Positions 14,951 through 52,113 of a DNA stretch of 64,000 nt are shown piece by piece. The position numbers were made by a program, and so were the translations under genes. Source of the stretch: Spironucleus salmonicida (lineage: Eukaryota); NCBI RefSeq assembly GCF_000497125.1, contig NC_090601.1, positions 248,001 to 312,000 of the forward strand, written 5' to 3'. Numbering within the stretch: position 1 is the stretch's first letter; every line of letters starts with the position of its first letter. The notes beneath the pieces were generated by a model. That model worked only from the letters and a program-made list of their open reading frames with translations. It was not told the DNA's origin and did not search any database.

Positions 14951-14964
14951 TATTATAATTTTGC

Positions 14965-17900
14965 TCACTCAACGACCCCGCCCTCGCACACAGCGCAGAC
15001 CTGGCCCTCCTCGCCGCCGCTGCCGCAGCACTGACACTCGAACTTGCATACTACTATTTTCATCGTCTGGAAATTGACGGAAAAGTCAAAGTCCGTGACA
15101 ATCTCCTCGCCGCCCTTACAGTGCAGATACTGTTGTGCCTTCTCTTCGTACTCGGCAGATTTGAGCTGCCGCCCGACCTGCTGCAACTCGTAGCCGCACA
15201 TGCGCGCTAAATTACCAAAGTTATTCTTTTTGAGCTTCACACATGCAGATTTGAGCGCTTTTGCCCTATGTTGTGGGAGCAACGACTGCTGAGCAAAAAT
15301 AAGTAGGAGTGATGCAAGCTGTCGTGGTTCTTGCACCTGCTAGCGCATGATTTCGGCCATAAGGCCCCGAATGTAAGCGATAGAAAGGTACTGGTTTTGT
15401 TGATTCAGATTCAGGAATTTATACTAAATAAAGGCCGTTTTGAAAGATTCCAATGATACTGTGAAGTTTCCTTACGTTGTTTGGTCGATCGCCTGCTTGA
15501 ATAGAGTTTCAGTCGATTTTGCATCAAATTAGAGTTAATTATTATTGTTCTTAGCTTTTTCGATAATGTTCTTGACTACTGGCGTTGGAGACAATCCAGT
15601 TAGCCTAAATACTTAAGAATTTGGGTTTAATAAATCTGGGAGGTTACTATCCGTATGAGAAGAGCCTTCTGAAGACCAATTGTCTTATTCATTCGTTTTT
15701 TACTATTATTCTGGTAATTTATGATCTAATTATTCTGGTTCTTCCTTGTCGTCAGACCATTAGCCGTTGTTCTCAATCGGATCCATAGCAATCTCTTCAA
15801 TGGGCTAGAGTTCTTCCACTGGAAGATTTATTTTCCAGTTTTTAAGTTAGTTCTTGCGCATCGGTATTGGCAGAGCTTTTCCCTATTTTAATAGTTTTTC
15901 ATCTAGTTTATCTGCATCAAGAACTTCATACATTATATTACGAGACTCTGCAAAAACCTAGGCTGCTGCAGTTAAGCCACAATCGTGTAATGTAATTAAA
16001 AACTCTTTATTATCACCCATCATCATTGATGCGTTAAATCTTTACTAAATAGAACAATTGCTATAATTTAATGGTTCATTTGAGCTATTTAAAACATTTA
16101 TATAAGCCTGTTTTTCACAGCTTGAATATTAAAAGGCTTTACGCCACTGCTGCTACTTTTCACATTCAGTAATATATTCAGGAATGAATTATGGTAATAC
16201 TGAATCAGGAATTTCACCTAAATCGATACTTAACTTCTATTTTAATAATATATTACTTTCAGGTACTAATTATAAAGCCTCTTTATTAAAGCAACAACTC
16301 ATAAGCTTACCTACTAGAGCATTGCCTAAATTGGACTTCTTTACTCTTTTGAGTAATATCTAAACATCCCCTGTTCTATCATCTGCGATAGCAGTCATAA
16401 GGCCACAAACTCTGGAATCGAACTCCATAGCAAAAGGTTCGCAATTTTAATCTAATAATAACATTTATTAGCCTAATACCTATTGTATAAACAAAATCTT
16501 GTTGAGAGATGTAATAACACCAGATATATCTTTACTAGGACAAAGATATAAAACATGAGTAGCATTAGTAAAAACAAGTGTTTATCTTGGTGAAGATTCA
16601 AAACCTCTACCTAAATTACCAAAGCACATAGATAAAATCTAAGAAGATGATTTAAAAGACGAAATCATCTTATAATTTCTATCTAAAATGAAAGCAGACG
16701 AAAAAGATCTGATGCCAATGAAACTTTCAGTAGAAAACGCAAAGCCTCGAGGTGAGAATGGCAATGATAACTATTATTTTACAATAATAATGTCATCTTG
16801 TATTTATACAACATCTATATCACCTTTATCATAACACAATAGACACTCATTTGATTCGAAACCATTAATTAAAAATGTACTTACCTTAGTTAATTAAATC
16901 TTACTAATAACAGCGACTCCATCAGTTGAAGGAGTTCCTATGTTTAGCTATCCATTAATAACAAATGCTACTTGCGTTTTATTTATTTTGATAATATTAG
17001 ATTCTGTTTGAAAAGGTACAGAGGCTTAAGAAGCCAACGACATTAATGTGCATGCCGTTTTATTTACTCCATCATCATATGCAAGTACTATTGGATAAGG
17101 TTCGCCTATATTTAAAAGTTATTATGGTATTAACACTCTTTTTCCAGCTCCGAATGATCCAGATCTCGCTACCTATGATGTAACTTTATTGTATTTTTAA
17201 TCGTTTGAGTTAGTAATATTTACGGATTGTAAAATCCCATTTTTGATAAAATATGATTATCCTTTATTTTCAGTTGAAGCAATGAACTAATTATCTAAAA
17301 TGTTAAAAATAATAAGTCCTTAATCATGGCCTGCTGCCCATAAAGATTACTTTGGATGCTCAGATAAACACCAAAATCGTGTTGGCATTGAATTTTATGG
17401 TTTAATACCATAGTCCTGACAAGTTAAATTTCCAATATATGTCTTAGACTTTTATTCGTAAACTCTAATAGTACCATCAGATGAAGCTGATACAACCACA
17501 TTATCTTTACCTACTTCCACAGCATTAACATTACCACTGTGACCAGTCAATGTACTATGAGTATATAAAGTAGCATCTATTCCTAGAATTTCATCTTTTT
17601 CTGGCTTTCCTCTTAACAACCTCCATTCTCTTACAGAATAATCATCTGAAGATGAATATAGTGAATCATTTTCACCCCAAGATACCCAATTAACACCTCT
17701 TGTGTGAGATTCTCCATTAATTGATATCGATAATGTGCATTAAGGCAAGTTCAAAACTTATTATAACGTCTTTTCTACTATATTTTTCTTCAAACCTACA
17801 GAACGACTTATCTTTGATAAATCCCAAACCCTAACCGTTGAATCTAATCCTGCAGTAGCAAGCAAATCATCTCTTGGGTGGAACTTGGCACACATTGCAA

Positions 17901-25786: not shown

Positions 25787-25961
25787 TTGATTATCATTTA
25801 TTATACTATATTTTTACTATTTTTATTTTCTACTAAAGAACAAAAAATTAATATATGCAAATTATATATTATTATCTTCAATCAACCTGCTAAAATAACA
25901 AATAAAAAAGCCAAATAAATTATTAATTATTATTATATATTAAATTATCAATAAAATAAAA

Positions 25962-28439
25962 ATGACACATAGAAATATATTTTTTGCAGCAAACATCCAG
26001 AAATCAGGTCTGAAGACAAGCTGTCAATTCGCACAGTTCAAGATTATTCTAATAACCGACTGCAGCGTGTAGTACGAATCGAAATCGACCGTCCTAGCGA
26101 CCTCGAGCCCCACTTTTGCTATTGAAGTGAACTACCAGATTTCACCAAACGTGCCTGTTCTGATCTTGGAGCTTCTCACGCTCACGCAACAAAATGAGGC
26201 ATTCATCCCCGGAGAAATTGCGTATTACCACACCGCTGACACGATCAACTTCGAGCGCGAGGACATCCAGCGGCTCGAATTCGTCTCAAAAACTTCCAAA
26301 ATCGTAGCGGACATCACTATAACGCAGAAGACGTACCCGTATTTCGTACGGTTTCCGCTCATAGAGCTCAACTTCGATAGCGTGAAAATGAAACTCTCAA
26401 ACCTCTCTTTCCTGCAGTTTCTGGCACTGGAAGTGCAGTCTGCAGATGTCAAAATGCTCAAATTTTTCGGCTCCAAAACGTGGAATTCGCTCGAAAACCA
26501 GATCCCATTCTCCGTTGGCGTGCTGCTCAAAATCATTTTCGTCGTGAACATCCTAGGGCGACAGCATCGCATCACGCTCGTCTCGGTGCGAATCAGCACC
26601 AACATGGTCGATGCGATGAAGGGGCAGCTGTTTAACATCCAGGACATCTCGGTGAACCTGCCGCCGGAGTTCTACTTCCTGGTCGATTTAATGGCGTTCG
26701 CGCAGCTGAATGGCGAGGATACGGTCATCATAAATGATATAGCGTTTAAGCTGAGCAGTGTGAACTCGTTCGGAGCGCTGGAACGCTACTGTGTGGCCAA
26801 GGGAGCTAAAATTTCAGATCACAATTTAAGCTATTTCAACGGCTTTAAGTAGGCTTCTGAGCCGGAAAAAGCTGTTAAAAAGGTATATGACTAAGAAGTT
26901 CAGATGATCGACGACTTTATTCAGGTTATTCACTTTTATAAGCAATTGAGCTTCAGTGGGAGCGTTTTCGTATTTTTAGATGGCATTGTACACGAAAAAA
27001 CGGTTATGCAGTCATTTAAGGACTTGTAAAATAAATAAAAAGCTATTTGTATGATTTAGCCATTTACGGGATAACGGGATCATGCTTTTATCGTTCTGAA
27101 TAGGGGAAAAATCAACCCATAGGCCATAGTACAAACTACAGATGTGGGAACTGGTAATTTGGCGATTATAAAAATAAAAGATCCAGGAAATTACATTTAA
27201 ATATTTTCATCATGCAATTAACGAAATTTTACTAAGCTTTTTGTGAATAATCAAAAATCGTTGGTATCTAACTGGAAGGATATGAAGTTAAATTGTATGG
27301 TTTATGTCAGCGGAAGTAATTTCCGTGAGAAAGCTGTGATGGTGACCACGAAGCAGTTGCAGGCGAATGTGAACACGGGGTACGTCCAGCTGAAGGTGAT
27401 GCAGCATGTATGCATGAACGTGTTTCTACAGGACCAGGTATACGGGGAGAAGCACCAGGTCGGGCCGCCGCTGGTCTCTGAGGGGCTATTGAAGCTGAAG
27501 GCACGGGAGAACGCCAACTTCGACCCCGCAATGGAATTCAGCGGGATGGACCTGTCTCACATGGACCGCTACATCGAGTCGGCACTCGCACCGTTCGACG
27601 AGGGCTATGCGCATGACTACTTTGGTACCCGGGTGCGGAACCCCATCTTCGTGCAGCCAGCGCCCTTGCTGGCATCCTACATCGATATGCTGTGCACCAT
27701 CATCGAGAATGAGCGCCTAGAACAAATTCGCGTGGCGCAAGAGCGACGCGCTATGGAGGAGGCTGAGCGCGTGCGGATCCTCGCCGAGACGAAGGCCGCA
27801 GAGGAGCTGGAGCGGCAGCGCATTGCCGCGGAGGCCGCCGCTGCCGCCAGCAAGCTGACACCCGAGCAGGAGCGGGAGCAAGCCTTGACCAGCCGGAAGC
27901 AGGAGGCCTACGAGCGCAGGAAGGCGGAGGCCGAGCGGCTGGACCACCAGGTCCAGAAGTCCCTGGAGGACAAGCAGCGCCAGCTCGAGCTGGAGAAGGA
28001 GCTGCTCCAGATGAAGCTGGCCCTCAAGAAGGAGCGTAACCTCAAGTTCCAGCAGCAGTAGATTCAGTTCTCCATCAATACCAAGGGATACATCTACCAG
28101 AGCTTCTACAATGACGTCCAGCGCTCTGATGCGCCCGCGGTGGAGGTGCGACTGCCGCGCAAAGCCCACATACAGCCGGCAAGCTTGATTGTGGAGGTTA
28201 TGGAGCCCGAGATGAAGCTAGTCCAGAAGCAGGCGCCCATCCAGCCGCCTCCCAAGGCGGGAACGTTGGCACAGATCCGGAAAGCGGGCAGGTCGCGCAT
28301 CCTGTAGCCCGCCACCTCCTTCGTGGCGATTCCGGTGGGACAATCGCCTTAGACGCGGCGGTGTGTGAGCAGCATCGAGCAGATCCGGGCGCTGAGCCCC
28401 TACGGCATGAAGTCGCGCCCCCGAGTGGGCGTAATGTGA
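25962..28439 (+). CDS. Hypothetical protein with coiled-coil, 825 aa; 3' part lies in the left palindrome arm
   Basis: One frame joins ORF-track pieces 26127-26852 and 27243-28061 when TAR=Gln; ends at TGA 28437. Confidence 0.75.
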
Positions 28440-28588
28440 TTTGGATTTTGTTTGTAAACGCTGGTATATGTATTATTAGAAATTTCGTAAAAACCAAAAA
28501 CCTCCCTAACATACTTGTGCAGTATACCACAACAGTTCTGTTGTAACATCTGGACACTTCCAGGTTCCATTTACAACCCACTCTAAAA

Positions 28589-29131
28589 ATGATTTTCCTG
28601 GCACTGCAAACCTAGCAGACCGTTGCCATCGTCGGCACTGGATACAGCCTGCAGACAACCGTGAGCCTGCAGGACTCGAGGTTCCTGCTGGACCATCCGG
28701 TGAACCTGAACCTGAGCTTCATGGTCAGGAAGACCACCTGGGTTTTCCAGGCAACCGCAGTCATCGGCCCCGACGGGGTGGTGCACCATGAGTTCCTATG
28801 CGAGCAGGATCCATCTCTCGACGAGTGCGTCCGCATGATGCACCTGATGCAGACGGCGGAGTGCGTCATCGTTGTGGGGGTCTTCCAGAAGCTCACCGCC
28901 TAGTCGCTATTGATGGCATATTAATATGACTAGTCGCTGGCCTCCGCCAACTACAGCGTGCCAAGCTACGTCTGGATCATCGTGGCTGTCGTGGTCGCGG
29001 TCTTCGCGCTGGGTGTGCTGAGCTACTTCCTGAAGAAGAAGCAGACCCAGCTCACCAAGGAGCTGGGGGAGATCCAGCACCGGGTAGCGGAGCACAGGTC
29101 CATGATGGAACCCAAGGCCGTATACTTCTGA
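28589..29131 (+). CDS. Small type I membrane protein, 180 aa (copy 1)
   Basis: Starts MIFLALQ; TM segment YVWIIVAVVVAVFALGVLSYFL followed by KKK; stop TGA 29129. Confidence 0.7.
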
Positions 29132-29172
29132 CCCTGAGTGAGCATGCGCTGTCACCAACCGCTGGAGCGAAA

Positions 29173-30048
29173 ATGCACCCGTTTGAGGTACGCTGCGAGA
29201 ACTCACCTCTGGACTCCCTCCCGTTGGAGGGCACCGCCGGCGCCGAATCAATCACCAGCATTAACCTCGTTAACGTCCGGATCGGGCCCCTCGACCTGCG
29301 GCCCTTCCGATCCCTCGCGCGGCTCCGGGCCACCGGCAGTACGCTGACGATAGCAAGCAGCTTCCTCCCGTTCTCGTTGCAGGAAGTCGAGCTGGGACCC
29401 TGCGACCTGCGGTTCGTTGACTTCCGCTTGCTCGCGCGGCTGCGGGACTTCTCGTCGGAGGGTAACCCCGTTTTCGTGAAGGACGGTGCAGTACCAGCAG
29501 GGGTGGTATGTATGAGCATCCGGAGTGCCGGTACCGTGACTCTAGATCTGAGGGCTGCCGGATCCCTCGCGCATCTGGACCTTTCGAGCAACGAGGCTGT
29601 ATCTGTGCGGGCCGTGCCCCAGTCGCTGCGGAGTCTGGCGGTCTGCAACGTCGGATTACTTGGCATCGACCTGTCACACAGTCTGATCGAGGACCTGGAC
29701 CTCTCTGACACTGGCCTAACAGCACCCCCCTTCCTGCCGCAAACGCTTGTACGGATGAGGTGCTCCGGCACGGTACCGGGGCTGGTGGTGGCTGGTCAGC
29801 GCCACCTCCAGGAGCTGGACGTCTCCTACTCGGCGGACGTGCACCTGGACCTTCGGGCTTCCCGGAGGCTGCGGACCCTAAATATCGAGGGGGCAGAGGT
29901 GGAGTTTGCCCATGGACACATCCCAGGGAACCTGACCACACTGCTCCGCTACTTGGGCCGCGAGGAGGCCTTCGCACCCTCGACGGGCTTTGGGCATCTG
30001 ATGGAAATGCCGGACCTTTACCGGAGACTGGTGGCGAGAGGGAAGTGA
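29173..30048 (+). CDS. Leucine-rich repeat protein, 291 aa (copy 1)
   Basis: Repeated LxxLDLSxN/LxxLxI units (LAHLDLSSN, IEDLDLSDT, LQELDVSYS, LRTLNIEG); AGTGA end. Confidence 0.8.
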   Translation: MHPFEVRCENSPLDSLPLEGTAGAESITSINLVNVRIGPLDLRPFRSLARLRATGSTLTIASSFLPFSLQEVELGPCDLRFVDFRLLARLRDFSSEGNPVFVKDGAVPAGVVCMSIRSAGTVTLDLRAAGSLAHLDLSSNEAVSVRAVPQSLRSLAVCNVGLLGIDLSHSLIEDLDLSDTGLTAPPFLPQTLVRMRCSGTVPGLVVAGQRHLQELDVSYSADVHLDLRASRRLRTLNIEGAEVEFAHGHIPGNLTTLLRYLGREEAFAPSTGFGHLMEMPDLYRRLVARGK

Positions 30049-30057
30049 GAGCATTCG

Positions 30058-32487
30058 TCACATCGCGCTGAGCAGGTTCAGGTACACCTCCATCTCCTGC
30101 AGCGCCTTCGCCAACTCCCGCTTGCCGCTGACGATCGCGTTCGCCATCACTGCCTCGCGCCCGTGACCCTTCTGCACTGCAACCCCGCGGCGGCCAAACC
30201 CCTGGATGGCCTCCTCTTCCCAGCGGTCGTAGCTCTCAGCCCGCTGCTCGACTGGGGAGCGCTCTCCGTACCCATACTCCGCGACGATGCAGAGAACGTC
30301 GTTTTTGCTCACGCCGCCAACCTCAGCTGCGATCTTGATGGCTGTGAGCCACCCGAGTCCCGCGGTGCGCCGGAACGCATCCGCGATGATAAACTTGTTA
30401 TGCGTGTCAATGGCACGGGGGCGCAGGTGGAGGTACTTGGCCTGTATGCTCTGTCCGGCGCACTGGTAGCACACATCGCACAGGATCTGGGGCTGGTGCT
30501 CCGCTGGTTGCTGAGTCTATGCAAAGAAGTAGCAGAACTCCTTGAGGCTGGCGGAGCAGAAGCCGCAGGTGAAACCGAAGCGCGGTGGAAGCGGGCTCTC
30601 GCGGTATGGCTGGCTTGGGATGGTCTACTTGAGCACGAGGCGGTCATCGTTGATGAGCCGGTGGGCCCCCAGAAAGTCATACAACGCCCGTGCCCCACGG
30701 TAATCGAGGCCGAGGAACTCCAGGCATGGCGAGAAGCGCAGGTGGATGTGTGGCAGAGCACGGTATGTGCAGATTAGCAGGTTGCGGTCCATCAGGAACT
30801 GGTCCCAGTCCGGCGGCGGGCCACAGGTGGCGAAGAAGTCGCGCTCGAACTGGGATACACCGGCGGGTGAGAACCAGGTAGGGTCCTGCTGCAATAGTTT
30901 GCGGCGCTCGGCCTGCACCGGAGGGCGCAGGTACACGTCATCCTGCAGCTGGCGGGCGAACTTAGACTCCCCATAGGCGTAGCGTACGCTGGATCGGCCA
31001 AGCGGCTGCTCCTCCGCCAAGAGCTGGAAGGGCATGGGCTCGTTGTGGAGGATGGCGATGCTCTCGTTCACGTTGCAGGTGATGGTGAAGTCCAGCTTGC
31101 TGAAGTAGCGGATGTAGAAGTTGACGAGGTTCTCGTCCTTCTTGCCCCGCTTCGAGCTGTCGCGGTACACCCCCTACTGCTTTCCGCAGAAAGGTTGGCC
31201 CGCAAGCATGACCCCGCTGGTGCCGAGCACTGCGAGGTGGCTGTGCAGCTCCCCATTCTGATCGATGAATTGCTGCTGCTGGATGATCTGCTGGATGGGC
31301 ACGTTGCTCTGCCGGAAGCTCTGAGCGCGCACCAACCGCTCACGGTCGCCACCCATAAGCCGGCTGTTGTTGAGAATGCCGCCGTCCTGGTTGTAGCTCT
31401 CGAACCCGCGCACGATGTTGCGGGAAATCTGATGGCGGTTGGCTGGCTTGTTCTCGGCCTGGCGCATCTTGCACTGCCAGGCGTGGACGAACTTTTGCAG
31501 CTCCGACTGCTGCTAATTGATCTGGAACTCATCTGATTTCTTAGCCTTGCAAAACTTCGCCTGGATGCGCTCGATCTCCACCTCCTGCACGGACGTAAGG
31601 TAGTCATAGGGGTCCAGTAGCTGGTTGAAGAAGTGCGAGTCCTGCACGAAGCGCGGCGGGAGAATCAGCGCCTACTGCTGGATGCCTTGCCAGTATATGT
31701 CATCCATGAAATCGTCCAGCTCGCGCGTGTTGTTCCCCACCTGGCGCTGGCGCACGGCGAGGAAGTCCTTGATGTTCATCACGAAGTCAAACTCTGGCGG
31801 CGTGCAGCGCGCGTGGACCAGCGCGTTCTTGCGGTCGTCGGGCTTCTCCACCAGCCGCAGGAAATACTTGTTGGTCCGCAGCACGTCTACGAACTGGATC
31901 TACTTGCCTTGGCGGAGCGCCGCGAAGTCCTCGGATACCGGCGGCAGGAAGGTTTCGGCTCCGCGGAGGACGTAGGTCGCATCCTCAGGGAACTCGACCA
32001 CCTCACCGCGCAACTGCAGCACCTGGGAGGTGAGCTCCTGAACGGCGTCTGGCTCCAGGCCTACGAAGCAGAAAGAGTGGAGGGGGATCAGGTTGTGCTG
32101 CTCGAGCACAGCGTACACGCTCAGATACAGCCGCCGGAACTCGTCTGACGTGAGGTCGTCGATGCTGAGGGCCTGCTTCTAGAAGTGGTGGTAGAACCCG
32201 AATACCTCGGCGAGGATGAGCTGCAGCGCCCCGTCCTTCTCGGTGTCGAAGAACATGAAGCGAGAGAGCACAGGCGCAAAGCGGGTGGGCTGCTGGGCTT
32301 TGAATGACAGCAACAGCATCATGCGGTTGTAGAAGGCGAAGACGGTGTCCAGGCACAGCTAGGGCGTGAGCAGGTGCGCGATCTAGTGCAGATCAGTCTT
32401 GAGGTACTTCAGCACCTGGTTTACAGAAGATTTCAGGTAGGCGCTCCAGTCCTCGAAGGACACGTCCGTGATGAGGCGGATCGACAT
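30058..32487 (-). CDS. SWI/SNF subunit SMARCC/Swi3-like, 809 aa (copy 1)
   Basis: Mirror of 36732-39161; SWIRM domain followed by a ZZ-like zinc finger. Confidence 0.75.
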
Positions 32488-32529
32488 TCGGAGCGGGTGT
32501 AAATGCGGTCACCGCGTGGTTGTCCAAGC

Positions 32530-32730
32530 TCACTCCAGCCGCCCCAGCAGGCACCCTGGGACCACACGCTACCCTGCCGCCACGTGTATCTCCTTCAGGA
32601 TACCGCACTGCTTCGCGCTCACGACAATCTCCAGCTTGCTGCTCACGATCCGGAACAGCCGCGCCCCCAGTTCCACTTTGTCACCTTTTATTATTGAGCA
32701 TTTTATAATTATCAATTGTTTTGGTGGCAT
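32530..32730 (-). CDS. Candidate stand-alone biotinyl-carrier-like ORF, 66 aa, formed at the inner arm edge
   Basis: MPPKQLIIIKCSII is fused in frame to [23 protein letters not shown]...GRLE*, identical to the transcarboxylase C-terminus. Expression unknown. Confidence 0.35.
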
Positions 32731-33140
32731 TCAGAGTCAATCAAATCATAACACTATTCTATTCCATATGACTCATATTATTTTACTAAGAAAATTGTAT
32801 TAAATCACCATAAATTCAGATTTTAAATTATATTACTACTATTATTATAATATATTTTATCATCCCTAATAGCAGAATGTTTAATATTACAATAGCATTA
32901 AACATATGTATTTCACTTTAAATTGACTAATTGAAATTTTTAATATCTACACCTCATCACGTTCAATATCATAATCAAATCTCAGATTTCATGTAATATC
33001 ACCTAGCATCATGTTATCATGACAGTGTTAATTAATTTTGTTATTTATTTCTAGTATTTCTTTTAAACTCTAGTTCCACTTCCTATTAATCTTGTAGACA
33101 TATTAATACGTCTACAACCTTCATCTACAATTCCCAAAAA

Positions 33141-36100
33141 ATGACTGAACTATTTTCAACCATATCTTCACTTGACTTTCTATCTTTTAAGTTCCATTCT
33201 ATATCCTACTCGAAATAACTTAAAAATGCATAGAACAACACCAAATAACTTTGTGGAATTACAACATTTAAATATATAAACCATATTCGTTCTTCATTCA
33301 ATTTTAATTTCCTTGGTGGATCATTGGGTTGTGCTGAATGCCAGAAATTGGTCCTTTCTGTCCGCGAAGCTAAAAAACTAAAAATTCCATTCGTATTAGA
33401 AACAGCATCTGGTGGTATTAGAATGCAAGAGGGAGCTGCTGCTTTATAGGCGATGCCCATTTTATGTGCAATATTAAGCGATTTACGACGATCTAATCTC
33501 GTTATTTGTATCTGTGGAGATCCCACCTTTGGCGGAGTTAGTGCCAGCATTTTAAATGAAGCCGATCTCATAATTGGTATAGAAGGAGCACGTGTAGGGT
33601 TTGCAGGGCGTGACGTGGTTAAAAATACTATTTTTGCAGGAAATTAAGTTGAAATGGATAAAACACTATAAAATGGGTTTTAAACGAGCGAGAGATGCGC
33701 ATAACTGCGCTTTTTCGATTTTTTCATCAAAAAAGATAATCTAGAAAATTTATTAGATTGTATACTATAACTGCAAAATAATAAAATACACAAATTCAGT
33801 ACCTTAGAACGGGACTCAGCAGAAATTTTCAGTAGCTTCAATTTTAAAGAATGCCGCTGCCGCACGCGTCCCTTACCAATTGACTATGCAAGAAATATTT
33901 TCACTCTTAAAAGTTAGCTTTGCTCTGACGGTCAAATTCTGATTTTTATTGCCCAGATAGACAATTAAAACTGCATTTTGATACTTACACACAAAGATGA
34001 TCTAACCGATCCCATCAGCGGTCTTGGCACTCCAATGGGATACCGTGCTGCTGGAAAAGCAGTGCTATTTGCTGGTAAAATGAATCTGCCTGTTTTTACA
34101 ATAGTAGACACATCTGGAGCTCTTCCTAGTCCATCAGCAGAGGATTAAAATTAAGCGTAAGCTATAAGTCAGTGCTTGACAGATTTTGCAAGGACTGGAA
34201 GTTTCATCGCGTCAGTTATTACTGGGGAAGGTGGTAGTGGCGGTGCAATTGCAATTGCAGCAGGAAATGCAGTTGGTGCGATCGAGAAAAGTTTTTATAA
34301 CGTTATTAGTCCTGAAGGTGGGGTTAGTATTTTGGGACGTAGTGTGTATAATAACGAGATCTAGAAGCAGAAAGATAATTTTGAAAATGATTGTTTACTG
34401 CTAGCTGAGAGCTAAAAATGTTATCCTGGTGATTTAGTTCAGCTAGGTATCCTTGATGTGATCATTAAAGGGTGGGATATTGATGAAAATAGTGATAAGT
34501 GCACTAGAACAAGCGCCAGGATAAAAGACTTCTTCTTAATGCAGTGCGATAACTATAGAATCGAAATTGAGCAAGACTGGGCTCAAATGAGACTGGAGCG
34601 TAATATTCGAATATTGTAGTATACATAACATAATTATGTTGAATTTTCTCAAAGTATAGGATAAATTCCATTAAAATTGATCAAATCAGTAGAATCAGTA
34701 GAATATGATTTAAATTTTAAGAAGGTTATGAGTTTTATTGCAAAGAAAACAATTGAAAATAAAGATAAGATAATTAAGCTTCCGTCAATGGATATCTAAG
34801 GTGAGGAATACTAATAGCAAATTAATTAATAATTAACTGCTGGTTATATTCTTAATACGAAAGGTCCAAAATAGGTCGTGGAATATCTAAATAATAGCAA
34901 TACTTTTTTTATTACTGATACTACATTTAGAGATGCACATTAATCCATTTTGGCTACTAGACTGAGGACTAAGGAATTACTTTAGGCTGCATAAATTTTA
35001 AAAAATACTGGATTATTAGACATTTAAGATTCAAAATTCTTTTCCGTAGAATGCTGGGGAGGAGCTACTTTTGATACTGCATATCGTTACTTATAAGAAG
35101 ATCCATGGGAGAGACTTCGAAAATTTAAAGAAATTTTACCAAATACTCTAACACAAATGCTTATTCGCGGAAAAAATGCGGTAGGATATACATCATATCC
35201 TGATAATGTTATAGAATAATTCATTATAAAATCTGCAGAGAATGGACTTGATGTTTTTAGAATTTTTGATGCATTTAATGATTTAAATTAAATGAAAATT
35301 TCGGTTGAGACTGTAATTAATAAGACAAATAAAATCTGTGAAATATGTGTATGCTTTACAGGATTTGACGATATTTATAATATAGCATATTATGTAGAAA
35401 AAATAATTGAAATTCGTAATAGATGGCCTGATGTGCATATAATATGCTTAAAAGATATGGCTGGTTTACTAAGGCCAGAATTAGCATTTGAATTCTTTTC
35501 AAATTTAATTAATGTGGCTGAACCATGCCCAATTCACTTTCATACTCACGATACATCAGGCTTATAATCCGCTACTATTTTAGAAGCAATTAAAGCTGGT
35601 GTAAAAATAGTTGATCTAGCATCAAATGCATTTTCAGCTTTGAGTTCTCAACCCCCACTACAATCTATAATTTTTAATAAACTTAGCGCTTAAGATTAAT
35701 AAAAATTAGAATACTATGATTAATTCTGGTCTAGACTTCGTAAGTAGTATTAATTTGAAGAAAATTCTTTAAATGCACCATAATCAAATGTTTATAATCA
35801 TTAAATGCCAGGTGGATAAATCAGTAATCTATATCAATAATGTATATAAATGGGCTTAGAAGAAAAATGGGAATAGTGTATGATTAACTATTAGGAAAGT
35901 AATGAATTTTTCGGGAGAATAATAAAAGTTACCCCTAGTAGTAAAGTTGTAGGAGATTTAGCCTTGTTTATGACGTAAAAATAGATATAAAAATAGGATT
36001 TATATAGATAGTAAGATTTACCTGTTAGTGTAATCTAATTCATTCAAGGAGACCTAGGTTTTCCTCATAAAGGATTTCCTCAGTAGGTTATGAATATAGT

Positions 36101-36689
36101 TTAATAGTAAGTTTAGGAGTAAAAAGTCAATTTAGATTTTTAGAATATATAATAAGAAGTTTAGAAATATTGTGAGAATCCAAAGATGGAAGAAATATTA
36201 TCATACATTCTTTATCCAGATGTTTTTAAGAATTACTGTCATTAAGTTAAGATAAATGGTAAAATTGAACAGTTACCCGTTGAATAATTTTTATATGGAA
36301 TGCGTATAGGATAGTAAATTTAATACGAAAATTATACTATTTAATTGGTACGAATACATCCTCCCGAATTTGACTTTACTAGAAAATGTGAATTTCTGGT
36401 TAATAATAACATTTATTATGTAAATATTAAGTAAGAAACTTAAAAACCTTAAACGCTAAAAATGGTGACTGGGCATGGCAATGAAGTTGAATGCGATGTT
36501 TTGGGCATTGTTTAGGGAGTATATGCTCAAAAAGGTGACAAAGTGGAACTGGGGGCGCGGCTGTTCCGGATCGTGAGCAGCAAGCTGGAGATTGTCGTGA
36601 GCGCGAAGCAGTGCGGTATCCTGAAGGAGATACACGTGGCGGCAGGGTAGCGTGTGGTCCCAGGGTGCCTGCTGGGGCGGCTGGAGTGA
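33141..36689 (+). CDS. Acetyl-CoA carboxyltransferase/pyruvate carboxylase fusion (single-chain transcarboxylase), about 1182 aa
   Basis: AccD motifs ([25 protein letters not shown]); AccA motifs ([19 protein letters not shown]); PC carboxyltransferase motifs ([54 protein letters not shown]); C-terminal biotinyl domain. An in-frame upstream ATG at 32877 is an alternative start. Confidence 0.95.
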
Positions 36690-36731
36690 GCTTGGACAAC
36701 CACGCGGTGACCGCATTTACACCCGCTCCGA

Positions 36732-39161
36732 ATGTCGATCCGCCTCATCACGGACGTGTCCTTCGAGGACTGGAGCGCCTACCTGAAATCTTCTGTAAAC
36801 CAGGTGCTGAAGTACCTCAAGACTGATCTGCACTAGATCGCGCACCTGCTCACGCCCTAGCTGTGCCTGGACACCGTCTTCGCCTTCTACAACCGCATGA
36901 TGCTGTTGCTGTCATTCAAAGCCCAGCAGCCCACCCGCTTTGCGCCTGTGCTCTCTCGCTTCATGTTCTTCGACACCGAGAAGGACGGGGCGCTGCAGCT
37001 CATCCTCGCCGAGGTATTCGGGTTCTACCACCACTTCTAGAAGCAGGCCCTCAGCATCGACGACCTCACGTCAGACGAGTTCCGGCGGCTGTATCTGAGC
37101 GTGTACGCTGTGCTCGAGCAGCACAACCTGATCCCCCTCCACTCTTTCTGCTTCGTAGGCCTGGAGCCAGACGCCGTTCAGGAGCTCACCTCCCAGGTGC
37201 TGCAGTTGCGCGGTGAGGTGGTCGAGTTCCCTGAGGATGCGACCTACGTCCTCCGCGGAGCCGAAACCTTCCTGCCGCCGGTATCCGAGGACTTCGCGGC
37301 GCTCCGCCAAGGCAAGTAGATCCAGTTCGTAGACGTGCTGCGGACCAACAAGTATTTCCTGCGGCTGGTGGAGAAGCCCGACGACCGCAAGAACGCGCTG
37401 GTCCACGCGCGCTGCACGCCGCCAGAGTTTGACTTCGTGATGAACATCAAGGACTTCCTCGCCGTGCGCCAGCGCCAGGTGGGGAACAACACGCGCGAGC
37501 TGGACGATTTCATGGATGACATATACTGGCAAGGCATCCAGCAGTAGGCGCTGATTCTCCCGCCGCGCTTCGTGCAGGACTCGCACTTCTTCAACCAGCT
37601 ACTGGACCCCTATGACTACCTTACGTCCGTGCAGGAGGTGGAGATCGAGCGCATCCAGGCGAAGTTTTGCAAGGCTAAGAAATCAGATGAGTTCCAGATC
37701 AATTAGCAGCAGTCGGAGCTGCAAAAGTTCGTCCACGCCTGGCAGTGCAAGATGCGCCAGGCCGAGAACAAGCCAGCCAACCGCCATCAGATTTCCCGCA
37801 ACATCGTGCGCGGGTTCGAGAGCTACAACCAGGACGGCGGCATTCTCAACAACAGCCGGCTTATGGGTGGCGACCGTGAGCGGTTGGTGCGCGCTCAGAG
37901 CTTCCGGCAGAGCAACGTGCCCATCCAGCAGATCATCCAGCAGCAGCAATTCATCGATCAGAATGGGGAGCTGCACAGCCACCTCGCAGTGCTCGGCACC
38001 AGCGGGGTCATGCTTGCGGGCCAACCTTTCTGCGGAAAGCAGTAGGGGGTGTACCGCGACAGCTCGAAGCGGGGCAAGAAGGACGAGAACCTCGTCAACT
38101 TCTACATCCGCTACTTCAGCAAGCTGGACTTCACCATCACCTGCAACGTGAACGAGAGCATCGCCATCCTCCACAACGAGCCCATGCCCTTCCAGCTCTT
38201 GGCGGAGGAGCAGCCGCTTGGCCGATCCAGCGTACGCTACGCCTATGGGGAGTCTAAGTTCGCCCGCCAGCTGCAGGATGACGTGTACCTGCGCCCTCCG
38301 GTGCAGGCCGAGCGCCGCAAACTATTGCAGCAGGACCCTACCTGGTTCTCACCCGCCGGTGTATCCCAGTTCGAGCGCGACTTCTTCGCCACCTGTGGCC
38401 CGCCGCCGGACTGGGACCAGTTCCTGATGGACCGCAACCTGCTAATCTGCACATACCGTGCTCTGCCACACATCCACCTGCGCTTCTCGCCATGCCTGGA
38501 GTTCCTCGGCCTCGATTACCGTGGGGCACGGGCGTTGTATGACTTTCTGGGGGCCCACCGGCTCATCAACGATGACCGCCTCGTGCTCAAGTAGACCATC
38601 CCAAGCCAGCCATACCGCGAGAGCCCGCTTCCACCGCGCTTCGGTTTCACCTGCGGCTTCTGCTCCGCCAGCCTCAAGGAGTTCTGCTACTTCTTTGCAT
38701 AGACTCAGCAACCAGCGGAGCACCAGCCCCAGATCCTGTGCGATGTGTGCTACCAGTGCGCCGGACAGAGCATACAGGCCAAGTACCTCCACCTGCGCCC
38801 CCGTGCCATTGACACGCATAACAAGTTTATCATCGCGGATGCGTTCCGGCGCACCGCGGGACTCGGGTGGCTCACAGCCATCAAGATCGCAGCTGAGGTT
38901 GGCGGCGTGAGCAAAAACGACGTTCTCTGCATCGTCGCGGAGTATGGGTACGGAGAGCGCTCCCCAGTCGAGCAGCGGGCTGAGAGCTACGACCGCTGGG
39001 AAGAGGAGGCCATCCAGGGGTTTGGCCGCCGCGGGGTTGCAGTGCAGAAGGGTCACGGGCGCGAGGCAGTGATGGCGAACGCGATCGTCAGCGGCAAGCG
39101 GGAGTTGGCGAAGGCGCTGCAGGAGATGGAGGTGTACCTGAACCTGCTCAGCGCGATGTGA
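36732..39161 (+). CDS. SWI/SNF subunit SMARCC/Swi3-like, 809 aa (copy 2)
   Basis: One frame with TAG=Gln. SWIRM: PTWFSPAGVSQFERDFF...RNLLICTYR...ALYDFLGAHRLIN. ZZ-like: CGFC...LCDVCY. N-terminal DGALQLILA and LVH segments resemble the BAF155/170 N-terminal module. Confidence 0.75.
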
Positions 39162-39170
39162 CGAATGCTC

Positions 39171-40046
39171 TCACTTCCCTCTCGCCACCAGTCTCCGGTA
39201 AAGGTCCGGCATTTCCATCAGATGCCCAAAGCCCGTCGAGGGTGCGAAGGCCTCCTCGCGGCCCAAGTAGCGGAGCAGTGTGGTCAGGTTCCCTGGGATG
39301 TGTCCATGGGCAAACTCCACCTCTGCCCCCTCGATATTTAGGGTCCGCAGCCTCCGGGAAGCCCGAAGGTCCAGGTGCACGTCCGCCGAGTAGGAGACGT
39401 CCAGCTCCTGGAGGTGGCGCTGACCAGCCACCACCAGCCCCGGTACCGTGCCGGAGCACCTCATCCGTACAAGCGTTTGCGGCAGGAAGGGGGGTGCTGT
39501 TAGGCCAGTGTCAGAGAGGTCCAGGTCCTCGATCAGACTGTGTGACAGGTCGATGCCAAGTAATCCGACGTTGCAGACCGCCAGACTCCGCAGCGACTGG
39601 GGCACGGCCCGCACAGATACAGCCTCGTTGCTCGAAAGGTCCAGATGCGCGAGGGATCCGGCAGCCCTCAGATCTAGAGTCACGGTACCGGCACTCCGGA
39701 TGCTCATACATACCACCCCTGCTGGTACTGCACCGTCCTTCACGAAAACGGGGTTACCCTCCGACGAGAAGTCCCGCAGCCGCGCGAGCAAGCGGAAGTC
39801 AACGAACCGCAGGTCGCAGGGTCCCAGCTCGACTTCCTGCAACGAGAACGGGAGGAAGCTGCTTGCTATCGTCAGCGTACTGCCGGTGGCCCGGAGCCGC
39901 GCGAGGGATCGGAAGGGCCGCAGGTCGAGGGGCCCGATCCGGACGTTAACGAGGTTAATGCTGGTGATTGATTCGGCGCCGGCGGTGCCCTCCAACGGGA
40001 GGGAGTCCAGAGGTGAGTTCTCGCAGCGTACCTCAAACGGGTGCAT
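39171..40046 (-). CDS. Leucine-rich repeat protein, 291 aa (copy 2)
   Basis: Translation identical to 29173-30048. Confidence 0.8.
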   Translation of the reverse strand: MHPFEVRCENSPLDSLPLEGTAGAESITSINLVNVRIGPLDLRPFRSLARLRATGSTLTIASSFLPFSLQEVELGPCDLRFVDFRLLARLRDFSSEGNPVFVKDGAVPAGVVCMSIRSAGTVTLDLRAAGSLAHLDLSSNEAVSVRAVPQSLRSLAVCNVGLLGIDLSHSLIEDLDLSDTGLTAPPFLPQTLVRMRCSGTVPGLVVAGQRHLQELDVSYSADVHLDLRASRRLRTLNIEGAEVEFAHGHIPGNLTTLLRYLGREEAFAPSTGFGHLMEMPDLYRRLVARGK

Positions 40047-40087
40047 TTTCGCTCCAGCGGTTGGTGACAGCGCATGCTCACTCAGGG

Positions 40088-40630
40088 TCAGAAGTATACG
40101 GCCTTGGGTTCCATCATGGACCTGTGCTCCGCTACCCGGTGCTGGATCTCCCCCAGCTCCTTGGTGAGCTGGGTCTGCTTCTTCTTCAGGAAGTAGCTCA
40201 GCACACCCAGCGCGAAGACCGCGACCACGACAGCCACGATGATCCAGACGTAGCTTGGCACGCTGTAGTTGGCGGAGGCCAGCGACTAGTCATATTAATA
40301 TGCCATCAATAGCGACTAGGCGGTGAGCTTCTGGAAGACCCCCACAACGATGACGCACTCCGCCGTCTGCATCAGGTGCATCATGCGGACGCACTCGTCG
40401 AGAGATGGATCCTGCTCGCATAGGAACTCATGGTGCACCACCCCGTCGGGGCCGATGACTGCGGTTGCCTGGAAAACCCAGGTGGTCTTCCTGACCATGA
40501 AGCTCAGGTTCAGGTTCACCGGATGGTCCAGCAGGAACCTCGAGTCCTGCAGGCTCACGGTTGTCTGCAGGCTGTATCCAGTGCCGACGATGGCAACGGT
40601 CTGCTAGGTTTGCAGTGCCAGGAAAATCAT
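40088..40630 (-). CDS. Small type I membrane protein, 180 aa (copy 2)
   Basis: Mirror of 28589-29131. Confidence 0.7.
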
Positions 40631-40779
40631 TTTTAGAGTGGGTTGTAAATGGAACCTGGAAGTGTCCAGATGTTACAACAGAACTGTTGTGGTATACTGC
40701 ACAAGTATGTTAGGGAGGTTTTTGGTTTTTACGAAATTTCTAATAATACATATACCAGCGTTTACAAACAAAATCCAAA

Positions 40780-41877
40780 TCACATTACGCCCACTCGGGG
40801 GCGCGACTTCATGCCGTAGGGGCTCAGCGCCCGGATCTGCTCGATGCTGCTCACACACCGCCGCGTCTAAGGCGATTGTCCCACCGGAATCGCCACGAAG
40901 GAGGTGGCGGGCTACAGGATGCGCGACCTGCCCGCTTTCCGGATCTGTGCCAACGTTCCCGCCTTGGGAAGCGGCTGGATGGGCGCCTGCTTCTGGACTA
41001 GCTTCATCTCGGGCTCCATAACCTCCACAATCAAGCTTGCCGGCTGTATGTGGGCTTTGCGCGGCAGTCGCACCTCCACCGCGGGCGCATCAGAGCGCTG
41101 GACGTCATTGTAGAAGCTCTGGTAGATGTATCCCTTGGTATTGATGGAGAACTGAATCTACTGCTGCTGGAACTTGAGGTTACGCTCCTTCTTGAGGGCC
41201 AGCTTCATCTGGAGCAGCTCCTTCTCCAGCTCGAGCTGGCGCTGCTTGTCCTCCAGGGACTTCTGGACCTGGTGGTCCAGCCGCTCGGCCTCCGCCTTCC
41301 TGCGCTCGTAGGCCTCCTGCTTCCGGCTGGTCAAGGCTTGCTCCCGCTCCTGCTCGGGTGTCAGCTTGCTGGCGGCAGCGGCGGCCTCCGCGGCAATGCG
41401 CTGCCGCTCCAGCTCCTCTGCGGCCTTCGTCTCGGCGAGGATCCGCACGCGCTCAGCCTCCTCCATAGCGCGTCGCTCTTGCGCCACGCGAATTTGTTCT
41501 AGGCGCTCATTCTCGATGATGGTGCACAGCATATCGATGTAGGATGCCAGCAAGGGCGCTGGCTGCACGAAGATGGGGTTCCGCACCCGGGTACCAAAGT
41601 AGTCATGCGCATAGCCCTCGTCGAACGGTGCGAGTGCCGACTCGATGTAGCGGTCCATGTGAGACAGGTCCATCCCGCTGAATTCCATTGCGGGGTCGAA
41701 GTTGGCGTTCTCCCGTGCCTTCAGCTTCAATAGCCCCTCAGAGACCAGCGGCGGCCCGACCTGGTGCTTCTCCCCGTATACCTGGTCCTGTAGAAACACG
41801 TTCATGCATACATGCTGCATCACCTTCAGCTGGACGTACCCCGTGTTCACATTCGCCTGCAACTGCTTCGTGATCAC
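40780..41877 (-). pseudogene. 5'-truncated copy of the 25962-28439 gene; could encode about 346 aa from ATG 41820
   Basis: Only the 3' part is duplicated, and an in-frame TGA lies just upstream of the arm edge. Confidence 0.65.
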
Positions 41878-41975
41878 TGTGTTCTCACTGTAATTATTCT
41901 AATTTCATTGGTTAATCTATATTAATATTTTAATCAAAATATAGTAAATAGGTATAAAACTTCATGAAATCAGAA

Positions 41976-50628: not shown

Positions 50629-51612
50629 ATGAAATCACTGCTTACCCCGCTGCACTCTATGCTTACAAATCTAAAGCCAAAAATTGGGTCACCAATTACT
50701 ATCACAGTAAAGCCTTTATTCAGGACCCTCCAGCTTGCATTGTCACTATTTTCCACAATAGATAATTATCCTAAAACAAACCAAATTTTTGACCTAGGTC
50801 TAGCATTTGACCCAGACACGGAGCTATATACACCATAAGCTCAATTAACCCTACATTTTAACGAAAGTTTTCGGAAACTCCGTCTTTCTAGACATTTTTA
50901 AAATGAGCTTATTAACGCTGAATTTGTCGAAACTGCAGATGTAGGATTTGCATAATCAGAAGGGAAATCAGGATTACTATTTTTCTTCTCAGCTACGACG
51001 CGTTTCCTACTCAAACAGATTAAAAATTCAGAGCTTGCAATTCTCACCAAAATATCTCGAGAATACTGCGATCATGTATGTCAAAACTCATTCATAATCC
51101 CTTACTATACCGTTTTCACTCTTAAAATAAACGGCGAAAACTATCACTTTACACTTATGGATAATGCATTTTTAGGCGATATAAAGTATAAATATGACCT
51201 AAAAGGCTCAACGGCAGGTAGAACTTCCAAGCCCAACGAATCGACCATGAAAGATAACAATTTAGACCGGAAATTCTCTCTAGGCCTGTACCGCCGCGAA
51301 TTCGGCCACCAACTCGCCAGCGACATCGAAAAGCTTACCAAATGGGGCCTCCTGGACTACTCAATGCTGATTGGGGTGTTCGCCGGAGACAGAAAAAACT
51401 ACTAAATTCCAGTGATCCAGAGCATTCAAATAAGCGAAACTGAGTACATTTCATTCGCAATTATCGACATTCTGACGGTGTACACGCGCCGGAAGACCCT
51501 GGAGCGTTTTTTCAAGCAGTTTACGAGCGATCTGAAGCAAATTTCGGCTCAGAAACCGCAGGTGTACGGGCAACGGTTCGAGGAACGCATGCTGCGCGTC
51601 TTTGCAAAGTGA
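50629..51612 (+). CDS. Phosphatidylinositol phosphate kinase (PIP5K family), 327 aa
   Basis: SEGKSG.FF, YDLKGST..R, KDNN, LDYSMLIG, IIDILT.Y, ISA..P..Y..RF. Confidence 0.92.
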
Positions 51613-51625
51613 TGTTATCGCCAGT

Positions 51626-51949: not shown

Positions 51950-52113
51950 TGCGAATCTGCGGGTTAGAAAAACTAAATTAGTGAAATATAAAGAATTGTT
52001 GTTTCTCGAAAAATAAAAATAATATATATTGTATAATAATATGAAATATGTTGAATGTTTATTTATATATATAATAATATATAATAATAGGTGACTAAAA
52101 ATCAAATTCTAAA

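Follow-up and report, generated by a model that had tools for sequence, protein, structure and literature searches.

An inverted duplication in Spironucleus salmonicida with GC-rich arms: a candidate case of GC-biased arm-to-arm gene conversion

Introduction

Plastid inverted repeats are known for GC-biased conversion of genes that have moved into the repeat. Primate sex-chromosome palindromes are another such system, in which GC-biased gene conversion from arm to arm was reportedly found by Hallast et al. in 2013. For the primate X palindromes, the available passages of a more specific account state that the arms have become GC-enriched by GC-biased conversion between them (Jackson et al. 2021, PMC8981503).

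Sharp shifts in G+C content are also a feature of the genome of Spironucleus salmonicida, a diplomonad parasite of fish with the TAR=Gln code. They were described, with the cause left unexplained, by Andersson et al. in 2007 (PMC1805757), and the pattern was again termed 'very difficult to explain' in 2010 (PMC2874811). Blocks of about 70% GC lie beside blocks of 30%, and there are genes with GC3s near 1 (PMC1805757, PMC2874811), while genes that have a high GC3 in S. salmonicida have orthologues of low GC3 in S. barkhanus (Roxstrom-Lindquist et al. 2010, PMC2874811). More recently, duplicated regions in the genome of S. salmonicida were given an average of 44.7% GC, against 30.7% (Xu et al. 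2022, PMC9509377). In their available passages, these accounts are statistical, and the cause is termed unexplained or mutational (PMC9509377, PMC1805757, PMC2874811). The link between GC and duplication is already in print as a genome-wide statistic, which makes the present finding less new than first thought.

In the published passages on this genome we found no paper that names biased gene conversion as the cause of the GC shifts, and neither the palindrome described below nor any coincidence of GC steps with homology edges. The term 'gene conversion' occurs 0 times in the available text of the 2007, 2010 and 2014 papers, and once in that of 2022, where it concerns surface-protein regions. 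The finished contig Sp1 of the 2007 paper was considered as a possible earlier record of the locus, but it carries a cysteine-rich protein gene according to the available description and is not this locus (PMC1805757).

Results and Discussion

Structure of the palindrome

A repeat search of the 64-kb window (the whole stretch of DNA that was analysed, in whose numbering all positions are given) returned one inverted pair, 27342-32689 and 36530-41877, of 5348 nt each and 3840 nt apart. Apart from this, the 64 kb contain a single repeat, a 50-nt AT-rich pair. Compared base by base, the arms differ at 2 of 5348 positions, namely 27346/41873 and 28249/40970. The core arms, 27347-32689 and 36530-41872 (x pairs with 69219-x), are 5343 nt long and contain one internal mismatch:

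27347..32689, unstranded: left arm, 5343 nt, one mismatch against the right arm, 60% GC
36530..41872, unstranded: right arm, reverse complement of the left arm
32690..36529, unstranded: spacer, unique, 3840 nt, 31% GC
28249, unstranded: single internal arm difference, C (CCT, Pro) against T at 40970 (CTT, Leu)

An earlier note on this DNA had given 5343-bp arms, a 3840-bp spacer and one internal mismatch at 28249/40970, and the base-by-base comparison reproduces each of these exactly. A near-perfect repeat of 5.3 kb cannot have arisen by chance. With two long inverted arms, a unique spacer and an arm identity of >99%, the structure is a palindrome, and it is very probably a real inverted duplication on an S. 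salmonicida chromosome.

Genes in and across the arms

The spacer contains most of a carboxylase-fusion gene together with the upstream region of that gene. The genes and gene pieces of the locus are the following:

25962..28439, + strand: 825-aa gene, running over the outer edge of the left arm near codon 461
28589..29131, + strand: 180-aa transmembrane-protein gene, GC3 0.84; second copy at 40088-40630 (- strand)
29173..30048, + strand: 291-aa leucine-rich-repeat protein gene, GC3 0.76; second copy at 39171-40046 (- strand)
30058..32487, - strand: 809-aa SWIRM-domain protein gene, GC3 0.85; second copy at 36732-39161 (+ strand)
32530..32689, - strand: second copy, in the left arm, of the carboxylase-fusion gene's final 52 codons with their stop, placed by symmetry with 36530-36689
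33141..36689, + strand: acetyl-CoA carboxylase / pyruvate carboxylase fusion of the transcarboxylase type, with 1182 aa counted from the annotated start
40780..41820, - strand: right-arm truncated copy of the 825-aa gene's 3' part, a 346-aa ORF

Two of the arm edges cut real genes, namely the ORFs of 25962-28439 (825 aa) and of 32877-36689 (the carboxylase fusion), as read under code 6. The 825-aa gene matches no Pfam family. Its truncated 346-aa copy, which has Leu where the full gene has Pro, is listed among the annotated proteins of the older assembly. The carboxylase-fusion gene has its last 52 codons in the right arm, and the edge lies inside the biotinyl domain, the Pfam Biotin_lipoyl match covering residues 1212-1268 and the edge falling at about residue 1218. 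The 52 arm-coded residues align end to end with the biotinyl domains of orthologues, 23 of 51 being identical to Hexamita inflata. The idea that GC pressure has spoiled the biotin-attachment motif was rejected, as the S-S-K-L found here fits the S-x-K-L consensus of 14 aligned fusion proteins. The left-arm counterpart at 32530-32689 is a gene fragment without an attached gene body.

The arm genes are host genes. Their frames contain 16 TAG and 1 TAA as in-frame sense stops, 9 of the TAG codons being in the SWIRM gene, which has homologues in Giardia muris and Dysnectes. The same sense codons and homologues uphold what the earlier note had said, that these are ordinary host genes with the same TAR=Gln code. 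Foreign or mobile GC-rich DNA is ruled out by the host code, by the SWIRM homologues and by the two host genes that read through the edges.

Relatives of the SWIRM gene were also sought in metagenome contigs, with none among 594 matches to a pattern taken from a 3-sequence alignment; an alignment of 10 SWIRM sequences contains no stretch of sufficient conservation for such a pattern. The closest available relative of the SWIRM gene, a fragment with 64 of 100 residues identical, has more FYMINK (31 vs 21) and fewer GARP residues (22 vs 25), a difference that is an unpolarised hint of AT-to-GC change, as is the published comparison with S. barkhanus across the genome (PMC2874811).

Composition steps at the edges of homology

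The arms have a GC content of 0.604, compared to 0.288 for the sequence outside them; the spacer has 0.311. Maximum-likelihood change-points, located within +/-1 kb around each edge, are offset from the four edges of homology by -1, -13, +4 and +13 nt. As expected under GC-biased conversion between repeats, the arms are richer in GC than the single-copy sequence next to them, and each limit of the enrichment lies no more than 13 nt from an edge of homology. At two of the edges the step lies inside a single ORF, as had been claimed before from four hand counts (15/60, 38/60, 14/60 and 41/60, all exact). In the 825-aa gene, GC3 is 0.33 just before the left outer edge and 0.84 after it, and in the carboxylase-fusion gene it goes from 0.24 to 0.81 within the biotinyl domain, at the arm edge.

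The palindrome can in this respect be seen as a natural experiment at base-pair resolution. The composition switches partway through a single reading frame, and in one case partway through a single protein domain, where homology to the second copy starts, and this points to a homology-dependent process.

The locus resembles the primate X/Y palindromes in having large inverted arms with an identity above 99.9%, a unique spacer, genes in the arms, and arms that are GC-richer than their flanks. It differs from them in arm length (5.3 kb, compared to tens to hundreds of kb), in a GC step that is base-sharp and inside ORFs, in a spacer whose GC is not intermediate, and in its host, a protist with two nuclei for which no sexual cycle is known, where it lies on an ordinary chromosome. 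It should also be pointed out that conversion and GC bias are inferred for the Spironucleus palindrome, not measured. With the plastid inverted repeats it shares two inverted copies, kept identical by conversion in the plastid case, in which entering sequence gains GC; those repeats, however, belong to an organelle genome with high copy number, and the GC effect is small.

Composition inside the arms

The arm genes have GC3 of 0.76-0.85, compared to 0.16-0.56 for the 32 ORFs that lie wholly outside the arms. GC1 is raised as well and GC2 much less, giving the order GC3 > GC1 > GC2; in the SWIRM gene, for example, the three values are 0.62, 0.36 and 0.85 for GC1, GC2 and GC3. The gene fragments without function in the arms have a GC content equal to that of the arm genes. 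Intergenic pieces within the arms have 0.61, 0.62 and 0.35 GC, against 0.13-0.22 outside. Glutamine codons shift from TAA-dominated usage outside to CAG and TAG in the arms, and the arm-coded protein parts are rich in Gly, Ala, Arg and Pro (GARP 0.24-0.31 vs 0.09-0.18). Taken together, the arms show the composition that a regional GC drive without selection would leave. If such a drive acts on the arms, the enrichment in Gly, Ala, Arg and Pro means that proteins are altered as a cost of the process.

Homology beyond the arm edges

Past the outer edge of the core, a short stretch of degraded homology is found:

27317..27346, unstranded: degraded outer homology, left; pairs with 41873-41896 and is in frame in the 825-aa gene
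41873..41896, unstranded: degraded outer homology, right; non-coding, AT-richer

About 22 of 28 aligned bases are identical, with 5 mismatches and indels of 6 nt and 1 nt, and BLASTN independently extends the arm homology to 27317/41896. At the core rate of 1/5343, 5 mismatches in 24 bases have a P of about 1e-14. An extension anchored at 27347 with gap costs of -4/-1 gives an outer score of 16 (P 0.0005 or 0.0085), a result that is suggestive only, the scheme having been adopted after the alignment had been seen. The inner edge scores 6 with these gap costs, which is not significant (P 0.37 or 0.084), and with a harsher scheme (anchor 27342, gap costs -5/-2) the score is 1 at both edges (P 0.30 and 0.59). 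No old homology was detected in the 1-kb flanks (z -0.4 outer, 1.4 inner). We rejected the idea that a 411-aa ORF in the right flank has diverged from a copy of the 825-aa gene's N-terminal half, the best BLASTP E-value being 2.9. The degraded outer stretch is far more diverged than the core, and this argues for an old duplication whose core has been homogenised.

Biased conversion between the arms and its alternatives

The explanation that we favour, and hold to be slightly more likely than not, is an inverted duplication of old date, whose copies are kept identical by gene conversion between the arms and made GC-rich by a GC bias limited to the homology. A 5.4-kb block, whose one end is in the middle of the 825-aa gene and whose other end takes in the final 52 codons of the carboxylase-fusion gene, would have been copied inverted to the far side of the latter. 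Since then, each copy would have been repaired from the other through non-allelic gene conversion within the chromosome, which would hold the arms at 1 difference in 5343 nt. If G/C versus A/T mismatches in the heteroduplex were resolved more often to G/C, the conversion would be GC-biased. Since conversion is possible only within homology, the rise in GC would be confined to the arms; these would drift to about 60% GC and a GC3 of about 0.85, while the sequence one base past the homology would stay at the AT-rich level of the genome.

Several observations count against this explanation. One is the arm intergenic piece of only 0.35 GC, which is 149 nt long. Another is that the first 30 nt of each arm already have 0.57 GC, with no visible fall towards the edges, such as might be produced by a conversion rate that drops near the ends of homology. 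A further one is the amplitude, as the GC excess is about 32 points here (60.4 vs 28.8%) compared to about 5 in the primate palindromes (46.3 vs 41.2% in the available passages of PMC8981503). The product of conversion rate, bias and population size would have to be far larger. By simple arithmetic, the scaled bias required is near 3, if the background GC3 of 0.22 reflects mutation alone. The smaller GC islands that lack a repeat partner in the window, and the non-significant extension of homology at the inner edge, also count against it.

Long-running homogenisation with GC bias had also been proposed in the earlier note. The neutral order of GC3 > GC1 > GC2, the degraded outer homology, the published GC of duplicates and the low GC3 of the S. 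barkhanus orthologues all lend the proposal partial support, with the direction of substitution unpolarised at this locus.

An alternative that we regard as unlikely, yet the best of the competing ones, is that a GC-rich block existed beforehand, made by whatever underlies the sharp GC shifts of this genome, for example a mutational bias of the region or hot regions of allelic recombination, and was recently copied inverted, the near-identity of the arms reflecting their youth. One difference in 5343 nt fits a very young duplication. Sharp GC shifts are moreover widespread in the genome and are described without reference to repeats in the available text of the 2007 survey (PMC1805757), and the window itself has four smaller GC islands without a repeat partner in it. 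However, both breakpoints must then have landed within about 13 nt of both prior GC steps, a coincidence of about 0.014 squared by arithmetic, with breakpoints free within +/-1 kb. The far greater divergence of the outer homology compared to the core also disagrees with a recent copy, as does the higher GC of duplicated DNA genome-wide reported in the accessible part of PMC9509377.

Another option is a homology-dependent process that is mutational in nature, where arm-to-arm repair proceeds by error-prone synthesis with AT-to-GC errors and mismatches are resolved without bias. It predicts the same edge-limited pattern, and the four amino-acid variants in the copies of the older assembly are all single A/T-to-G/C steps from the codons of the window, which may be sequencing errors. 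Raised mutation by itself would, however, drive the arms apart if conversion did not homogenise them as well. We know of no GC-biased repair error spectrum of this kind, and we consider the option quite improbable.

That the second arm is an assembly artefact, with one true copy and a fold-back or chimeric long reads behind the other, is very improbable. The older 454/Illumina annotation has SWIRM twice around two other genes, plus the 346-aa copy; it lists the LRR gene SS50377_12359, SWIRM as 12360, and SWIRM again as two frameshifted pieces, 12363 and 12364. The arms differ at one base, which changes Pro to Leu, and a fold-back from a missed adapter would be expected to lack a unique 3.8-kb spacer with an intact gene. 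According to the available passages of the genome paper, the PacBio read N50 of 14.6 kb at 161x is enough to span a 5.3-kb arm, and the scaffolds were compared with optical maps (PMC9509377). The carboxylase-fusion protein, including its GC-rich tail, is identical in UniRef/EukProt and NCBI sources. Four sequencing runs of one study contain 0.99-1.00 of 609 words sampled from 31000-38500, but the runs are perhaps the window's own source and a missing junction would cost only about 2-3 words, so that this fraction carries no weight as proof.

Finally, selection on codon usage or expression can be given next to no weight as the cause of the GC-rich arm genes: non-random codon usage in high-GC3 genes is noted in the available part of the 2007 survey (PMC1805757), but the GC step lies inside ORFs and even inside one protein domain, the fragments without function and two of the three arm intergenic pieces are equally GC-rich, and the amino-acid composition is shifted too.

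The GC mosaic of the genome

If biased gene conversion is the cause, this palindrome would be among the strongest local cases known, in a lineage whose recombination is barely characterised. The puzzle of 2007 becomes a concrete genome-wide question, that is, whether GC change-points sit on the edges of duplicates. As a tentative extension, in which we have less than even confidence, non-allelic GC-biased conversion between duplicates may be the main cause of the GC mosaic and of the genes with GC3 near 1, at a strength far above that in mammals and in a binucleate protist for which sex has not been observed. If this were true, GC islands with no visible second copy today would once have been conversion partners or be cryptic ones, and diplomonad genomes in general, Giardia included, may be shaped likewise.

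The earlier note had made a similarly wide claim, that palindromes could explain the GC3 heterogeneity. It is weakened by the four islands that lack a repeat partner in the window, which have a GC content of 0.45-0.48. For three of the four, no annotated paralogue was found. One island is the 5' kilobase of the 825-aa gene, with a GC3 of 0.63, and no paralogue behind it was found among the annotated proteins of 253-805 aa. The islands imply that palindromes need not explain all of the heterogeneity, and the genome can be GC-rich with no present-day duplicate in view.

Structure and base composition of the palindrome

A repeat search of the window yields an inverted pair at 27342–32689 and 36530–41877, that is, 5348 nt per arm with 3840 nt between the arms. 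Base-by-base comparison of the 5348 nt gives two mismatches, at 27346/41873 and 28249/40970. The arms described in the earlier note, 27347–32689 and 36530–41872, were found to be exact, the second mismatch being the single internal one that it had claimed, and its four hand counts of GC were all reproduced on recount. The only other repeat that BLASTN self-comparison detects in the 64 kb is a single 50-nt AT-rich pair. The genes concerned are the following.

Genes of the palindrome
25962–28439, + strand: 825-aa gene without a Pfam family, spanning the left outer edge
Left arm: 180-aa transmembrane-protein gene, with a complete second copy in the right arm
Left arm: 291-aa leucine-rich-repeat (LRR) gene, with a complete second copy in the right arm
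30058–32487, − strand: 809-aa SWIRM-domain gene in the left arm, with a complete second copy in the right arm
33141–36689, + strand: acetyl-CoA carboxylase/pyruvate carboxylase fusion gene in the spacer, its last 52 codons lying in the right arm

All three complete genes thus recur in the right arm, which closes with a 346-aa truncated version of the 825-aa gene; the left arm, for its part, finishes with a duplicate of the final 52 fusion-gene codons.

The arms have a GC content of 60.4%, compared to 28.8% in the remainder of the window and 31.1% in the spacer. In 30-nt bins, GC steps from 0.13–0.47 to ca 0.6 at every one of the four arm edges, and the maximum-likelihood change-points, calculated over ±1 kb per edge, lie −1, −13, +4 and +13 nt from the edges of homology. 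The steps occur inside single genes: in the fusion gene, GC3 rises from 0.24 (1218 codons outside the arm) to 0.81 (52 codons inside), and in the 825-aa gene from 0.33 (127 codons ahead of the edge) to 0.84 (the 364 codons that follow).

GC3 is 0.76–0.85 in the arm genes and 0.16–0.56 in the 32 outside ORFs (at least 150 aa, wholly beyond the arms), while in the arm genes GC1 is raised to ca 0.6 and GC2 to only 0.33–0.47. Intergenic GC is 0.61, 0.62 and 0.35 within the arms, compared to 0.13–0.22 outside, and functionless gene fragments match the genes in GC richness. The Gly+Ala+Arg+Pro (GARP) share is 0.24–0.31 in arm-coded protein (0.17 for the 180-aa gene) as against 0.09–0.18 outside, and Gln is encoded mainly by TAA outside the arms but mainly by CAG, along with TAG, within them. 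Such a pattern would be expected from a GC drive that acts regionally and without selection. The lowest of the intergenic values belongs to a 149-nt piece between the 825-aa and 180-aa genes (28440–28588), where GC is only 0.35 in an arm of 60%; the GC drive may be resisted there by AT-rich promoter or polyadenylation signals.

Origin of the GC-rich arms

We hold, with moderate confidence, that the most likely mechanism is GC-biased gene conversion between the arms, as proposed in the earlier note, acting within the limits of homology on an old inverted duplication. The duplication would have been the starting event, long ago, and GC-biased arm-to-arm conversion would have been confined to the homologous stretch. 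A homology-limited process explains the coincidence of the GC steps with the arm edges without extra assumptions.

The main rival is a recent inverted copy of a block that was already GC-rich, which we consider rather improbable. In this case both breakpoints would have to fall within ca 13 nt of the two GC edges of the block, each of which lies inside a continuous functional gene. By our own arithmetic this coincidence amounts to ca 0.014 squared, if the breakpoints are free within ±1 kb.

It is important to point out that some observations speak against the conversion mechanism or limit it. GC shows no gradient towards the edges of the arms, and the GC amplitude needs an effective bias much above the mammalian one. 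Furthermore, there are four smaller islands with a GC of 0.45–0.48 outside the arms; the three that are not part of the 825-aa gene are situated within or beside ordinary genes.

GC islands outside the arms
14627–15522: 3′ end of a 1115-aa WD40-repeat gene
25958–26964: first kilobase of the 825-aa gene
51119–52012: 3′ end of a PIP5K gene and a 160-aa ORF
53345–54805: 508-aa gene without a Pfam family

None of these has a repeat partner within the window in the BLASTN self-comparison. At 90% identity, both the WD40 protein and the 508-aa protein are singletons, and for the first 460 aa of the 825-aa protein no homologue turned up among annotated proteins of 253–805 aa. In the 5′ island of the 825-aa gene (25962–26963) GC3 is 0.63, with a peak of 0.93 near 26592, and it is down to 0.17–0.2 by 27132–27177, before the arm begins. 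Partners that lack annotation may exist outside the window; within the window and the annotated proteins, islands of this kind count against conversion as the cause of high GC or limit its reach.

As to the age of the duplication, ca 28 nt outside the outer edge can be aligned once a 6-nt indel is allowed for; this alignment contains 5 mismatches plus another indel of 1 nt, and its left side is in frame. The BLASTN match reaches 27317/41896. Anchored extension at this edge gives P 0.0005 with one flank held fixed and 0.0085 with the other, under a scoring that was picked after a harsher earlier version gave nothing. At the rate of the core, 5 mismatches in 24 bases have P ~1e-14, and the extension, if real, is therefore far more diverged than the core. 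The anchored test found no significant extension of homology at the inner edge, and no residual homology was found in the 1-kb flanks. If the extension is real, the sequences would fit an old duplication in which the core has been kept identical and conversion does not reach the final few tens of bases. Alternatively, the diverged stretch could be a messy junction made during the duplication.

Host origin and reading frames of the arm genes

Long ORFs are obtained in the window only with TAA and TAG read as Gln. The arm reading frames contain 16 sense TAG codons and one TAA, and homology to relatives persists on either side of in-frame arm TAR codons. The 809-aa arm protein agrees with a Spironucleus salmonicida UniRef entry at 808 of 809 residues, and a search with the SWIRM protein gave 20 proteins at E ≤0.001, including the query's own cluster, with homologues in Dysnectes brevis and Giardia muris. 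The sense TAG/TAA codons and these homologues bear out the earlier view that the arm genes are host genes and not foreign DNA. At codon 196 the SWIRM gene has a TAG (Gln), a single base away from TAY, where the fragment from the closest relative has Tyr, and homology runs on both flanks.

In the 1270-aa fusion ORF, the Pfam Biotin_lipoyl domain covers residues 1212–1268, with the arm edge at about residue 1218. Alignment of 14 fusion proteins has the arm-coded tail spanning the orthologues' biotinyl domains end to end, and the tail shares 23 identical residues out of 51 with either of two proteins from Hexamita inflata. Judged from these alignments, the predicted edge-crossing ORFs are real. 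The gene joins two carboxyltransferases, one from acetyl-CoA carboxylase and one of the pyruvate carboxylase type, to a biotinyl domain, and has no biotin carboxylase domain. Similar proteins are found in Hexamita, Carpediemonas, Monocercomonoides (there named malonyl-CoA:pyruvate transcarboxylase) and many algae; the biotin site reads S-x-K-L in the closest homologues and the usual M-K-M in more distant ones.

Amino-acid shifts relative to relatives give weak hints of a GC drive. The closest SWIRM relative found, a fragment with 64 of 100 positions identical, has 31 FYMINK residues against 21 and 22 GARP residues against 25, an unpolarised comparison. The GARP share of the fusion protein is 0.29 in the tail and 0.18 in the remainder, whereas the tails of the two Hexamita proteins show no enrichment (0.20 and 0.18, compared to 0.22 and 0.20 in the remainder), which is likewise unpolarised.

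Relation to earlier work

According to the sections of Andersson et al. 2007 (PMC1805757) used here, the genome changes abruptly in G+C content, with stretches of about 30% adjoining others of almost 70%, for example, and has some genes with very high GC3s, and these features are not easily explained by mutational or selection scenarios. GC3s above 75% was reported for 14 S. salmonicida genes and for none of the S. barkhanus orthologues (Roxström-Lindquist et al. 2010, PMC2874811). Duplicated regions (at least 2 kb, 95% identity) account for 19.2% of the assembly, with a mean GC of 44.7% compared to 30.7% elsewhere (Xu et al. 2022, PMC9509377); that paper mentions gene conversion once, on surface-protein regions. 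The terms 'gene conversion' and 'codon usage' occur 0 times in the 2014 genome paper (PMC3916229). Among titles and abstract openings for Spironucleus and Giardia in a limited full-text collection, we found no paper that attributes the mosaic to biased conversion between duplicates.

The same mechanism has been shown for primate X palindromes, with 46.3 vs 41.2% GC (excerpts of Jackson et al. 2021, PMC8981503). On our reading, the Spironucleus palindrome is an unusually sharp new case of a known phenomenon, and it offers an explanation that can be tested for the compositional puzzle of S. salmonicida, now nearly twenty years old.

Evidence on the physical existence of the palindrome

The older 454/Illumina annotation contains the LRR gene (SS50377_12359), the 809-aa SWIRM gene (SS50377_12360), a second SWIRM gene in pieces of 516 and 318 aa (12363 and 12364), and a 346-aa protein identical to the truncated right-arm copy. 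The two pieces correspond to residues 1–470 and 485–791 of the window protein with zero differences. If the order of the locus tags reflects that of the genes, two other genes lie between the SWIRM copies, which matches the window. This annotation gives indirect support to a physical palindrome. Four sequencing runs of one study contain 0.99–1.00 of the sampled words of 31000–38500, a share that would fall by only about 2–3 of 609 words if a junction were missing. The published long reads have an N50 of 14.6 kb at 161x, with scaffolds checked against optical maps (PMC9509377, in the parts drawn on), and reads of this N50 are easily long enough to span an arm of 5.3 kb. A fold-back read artefact would be expected to lack the 3.8-kb unique spacer with its intact gene.

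In the older assembly, a separate scaffold carries a third, N-terminal SWIRM fragment (564 aa, K311R), accompanied by fragments of the LRR and transmembrane proteins (proteins P0014, P0010, P0007). The scaffold may duplicate the right arm as a redundant contig, or the genome may contain the block a third time at another place. Residue differences between the older assembly and the window, namely K311R and Q675R in the SWIRM protein, I606T in the 825-aa gene and K157R in the 180-aa gene, could be copy or allele differences, or 454 sequencing errors; each is one A/T-to-G/C step from the window codon.
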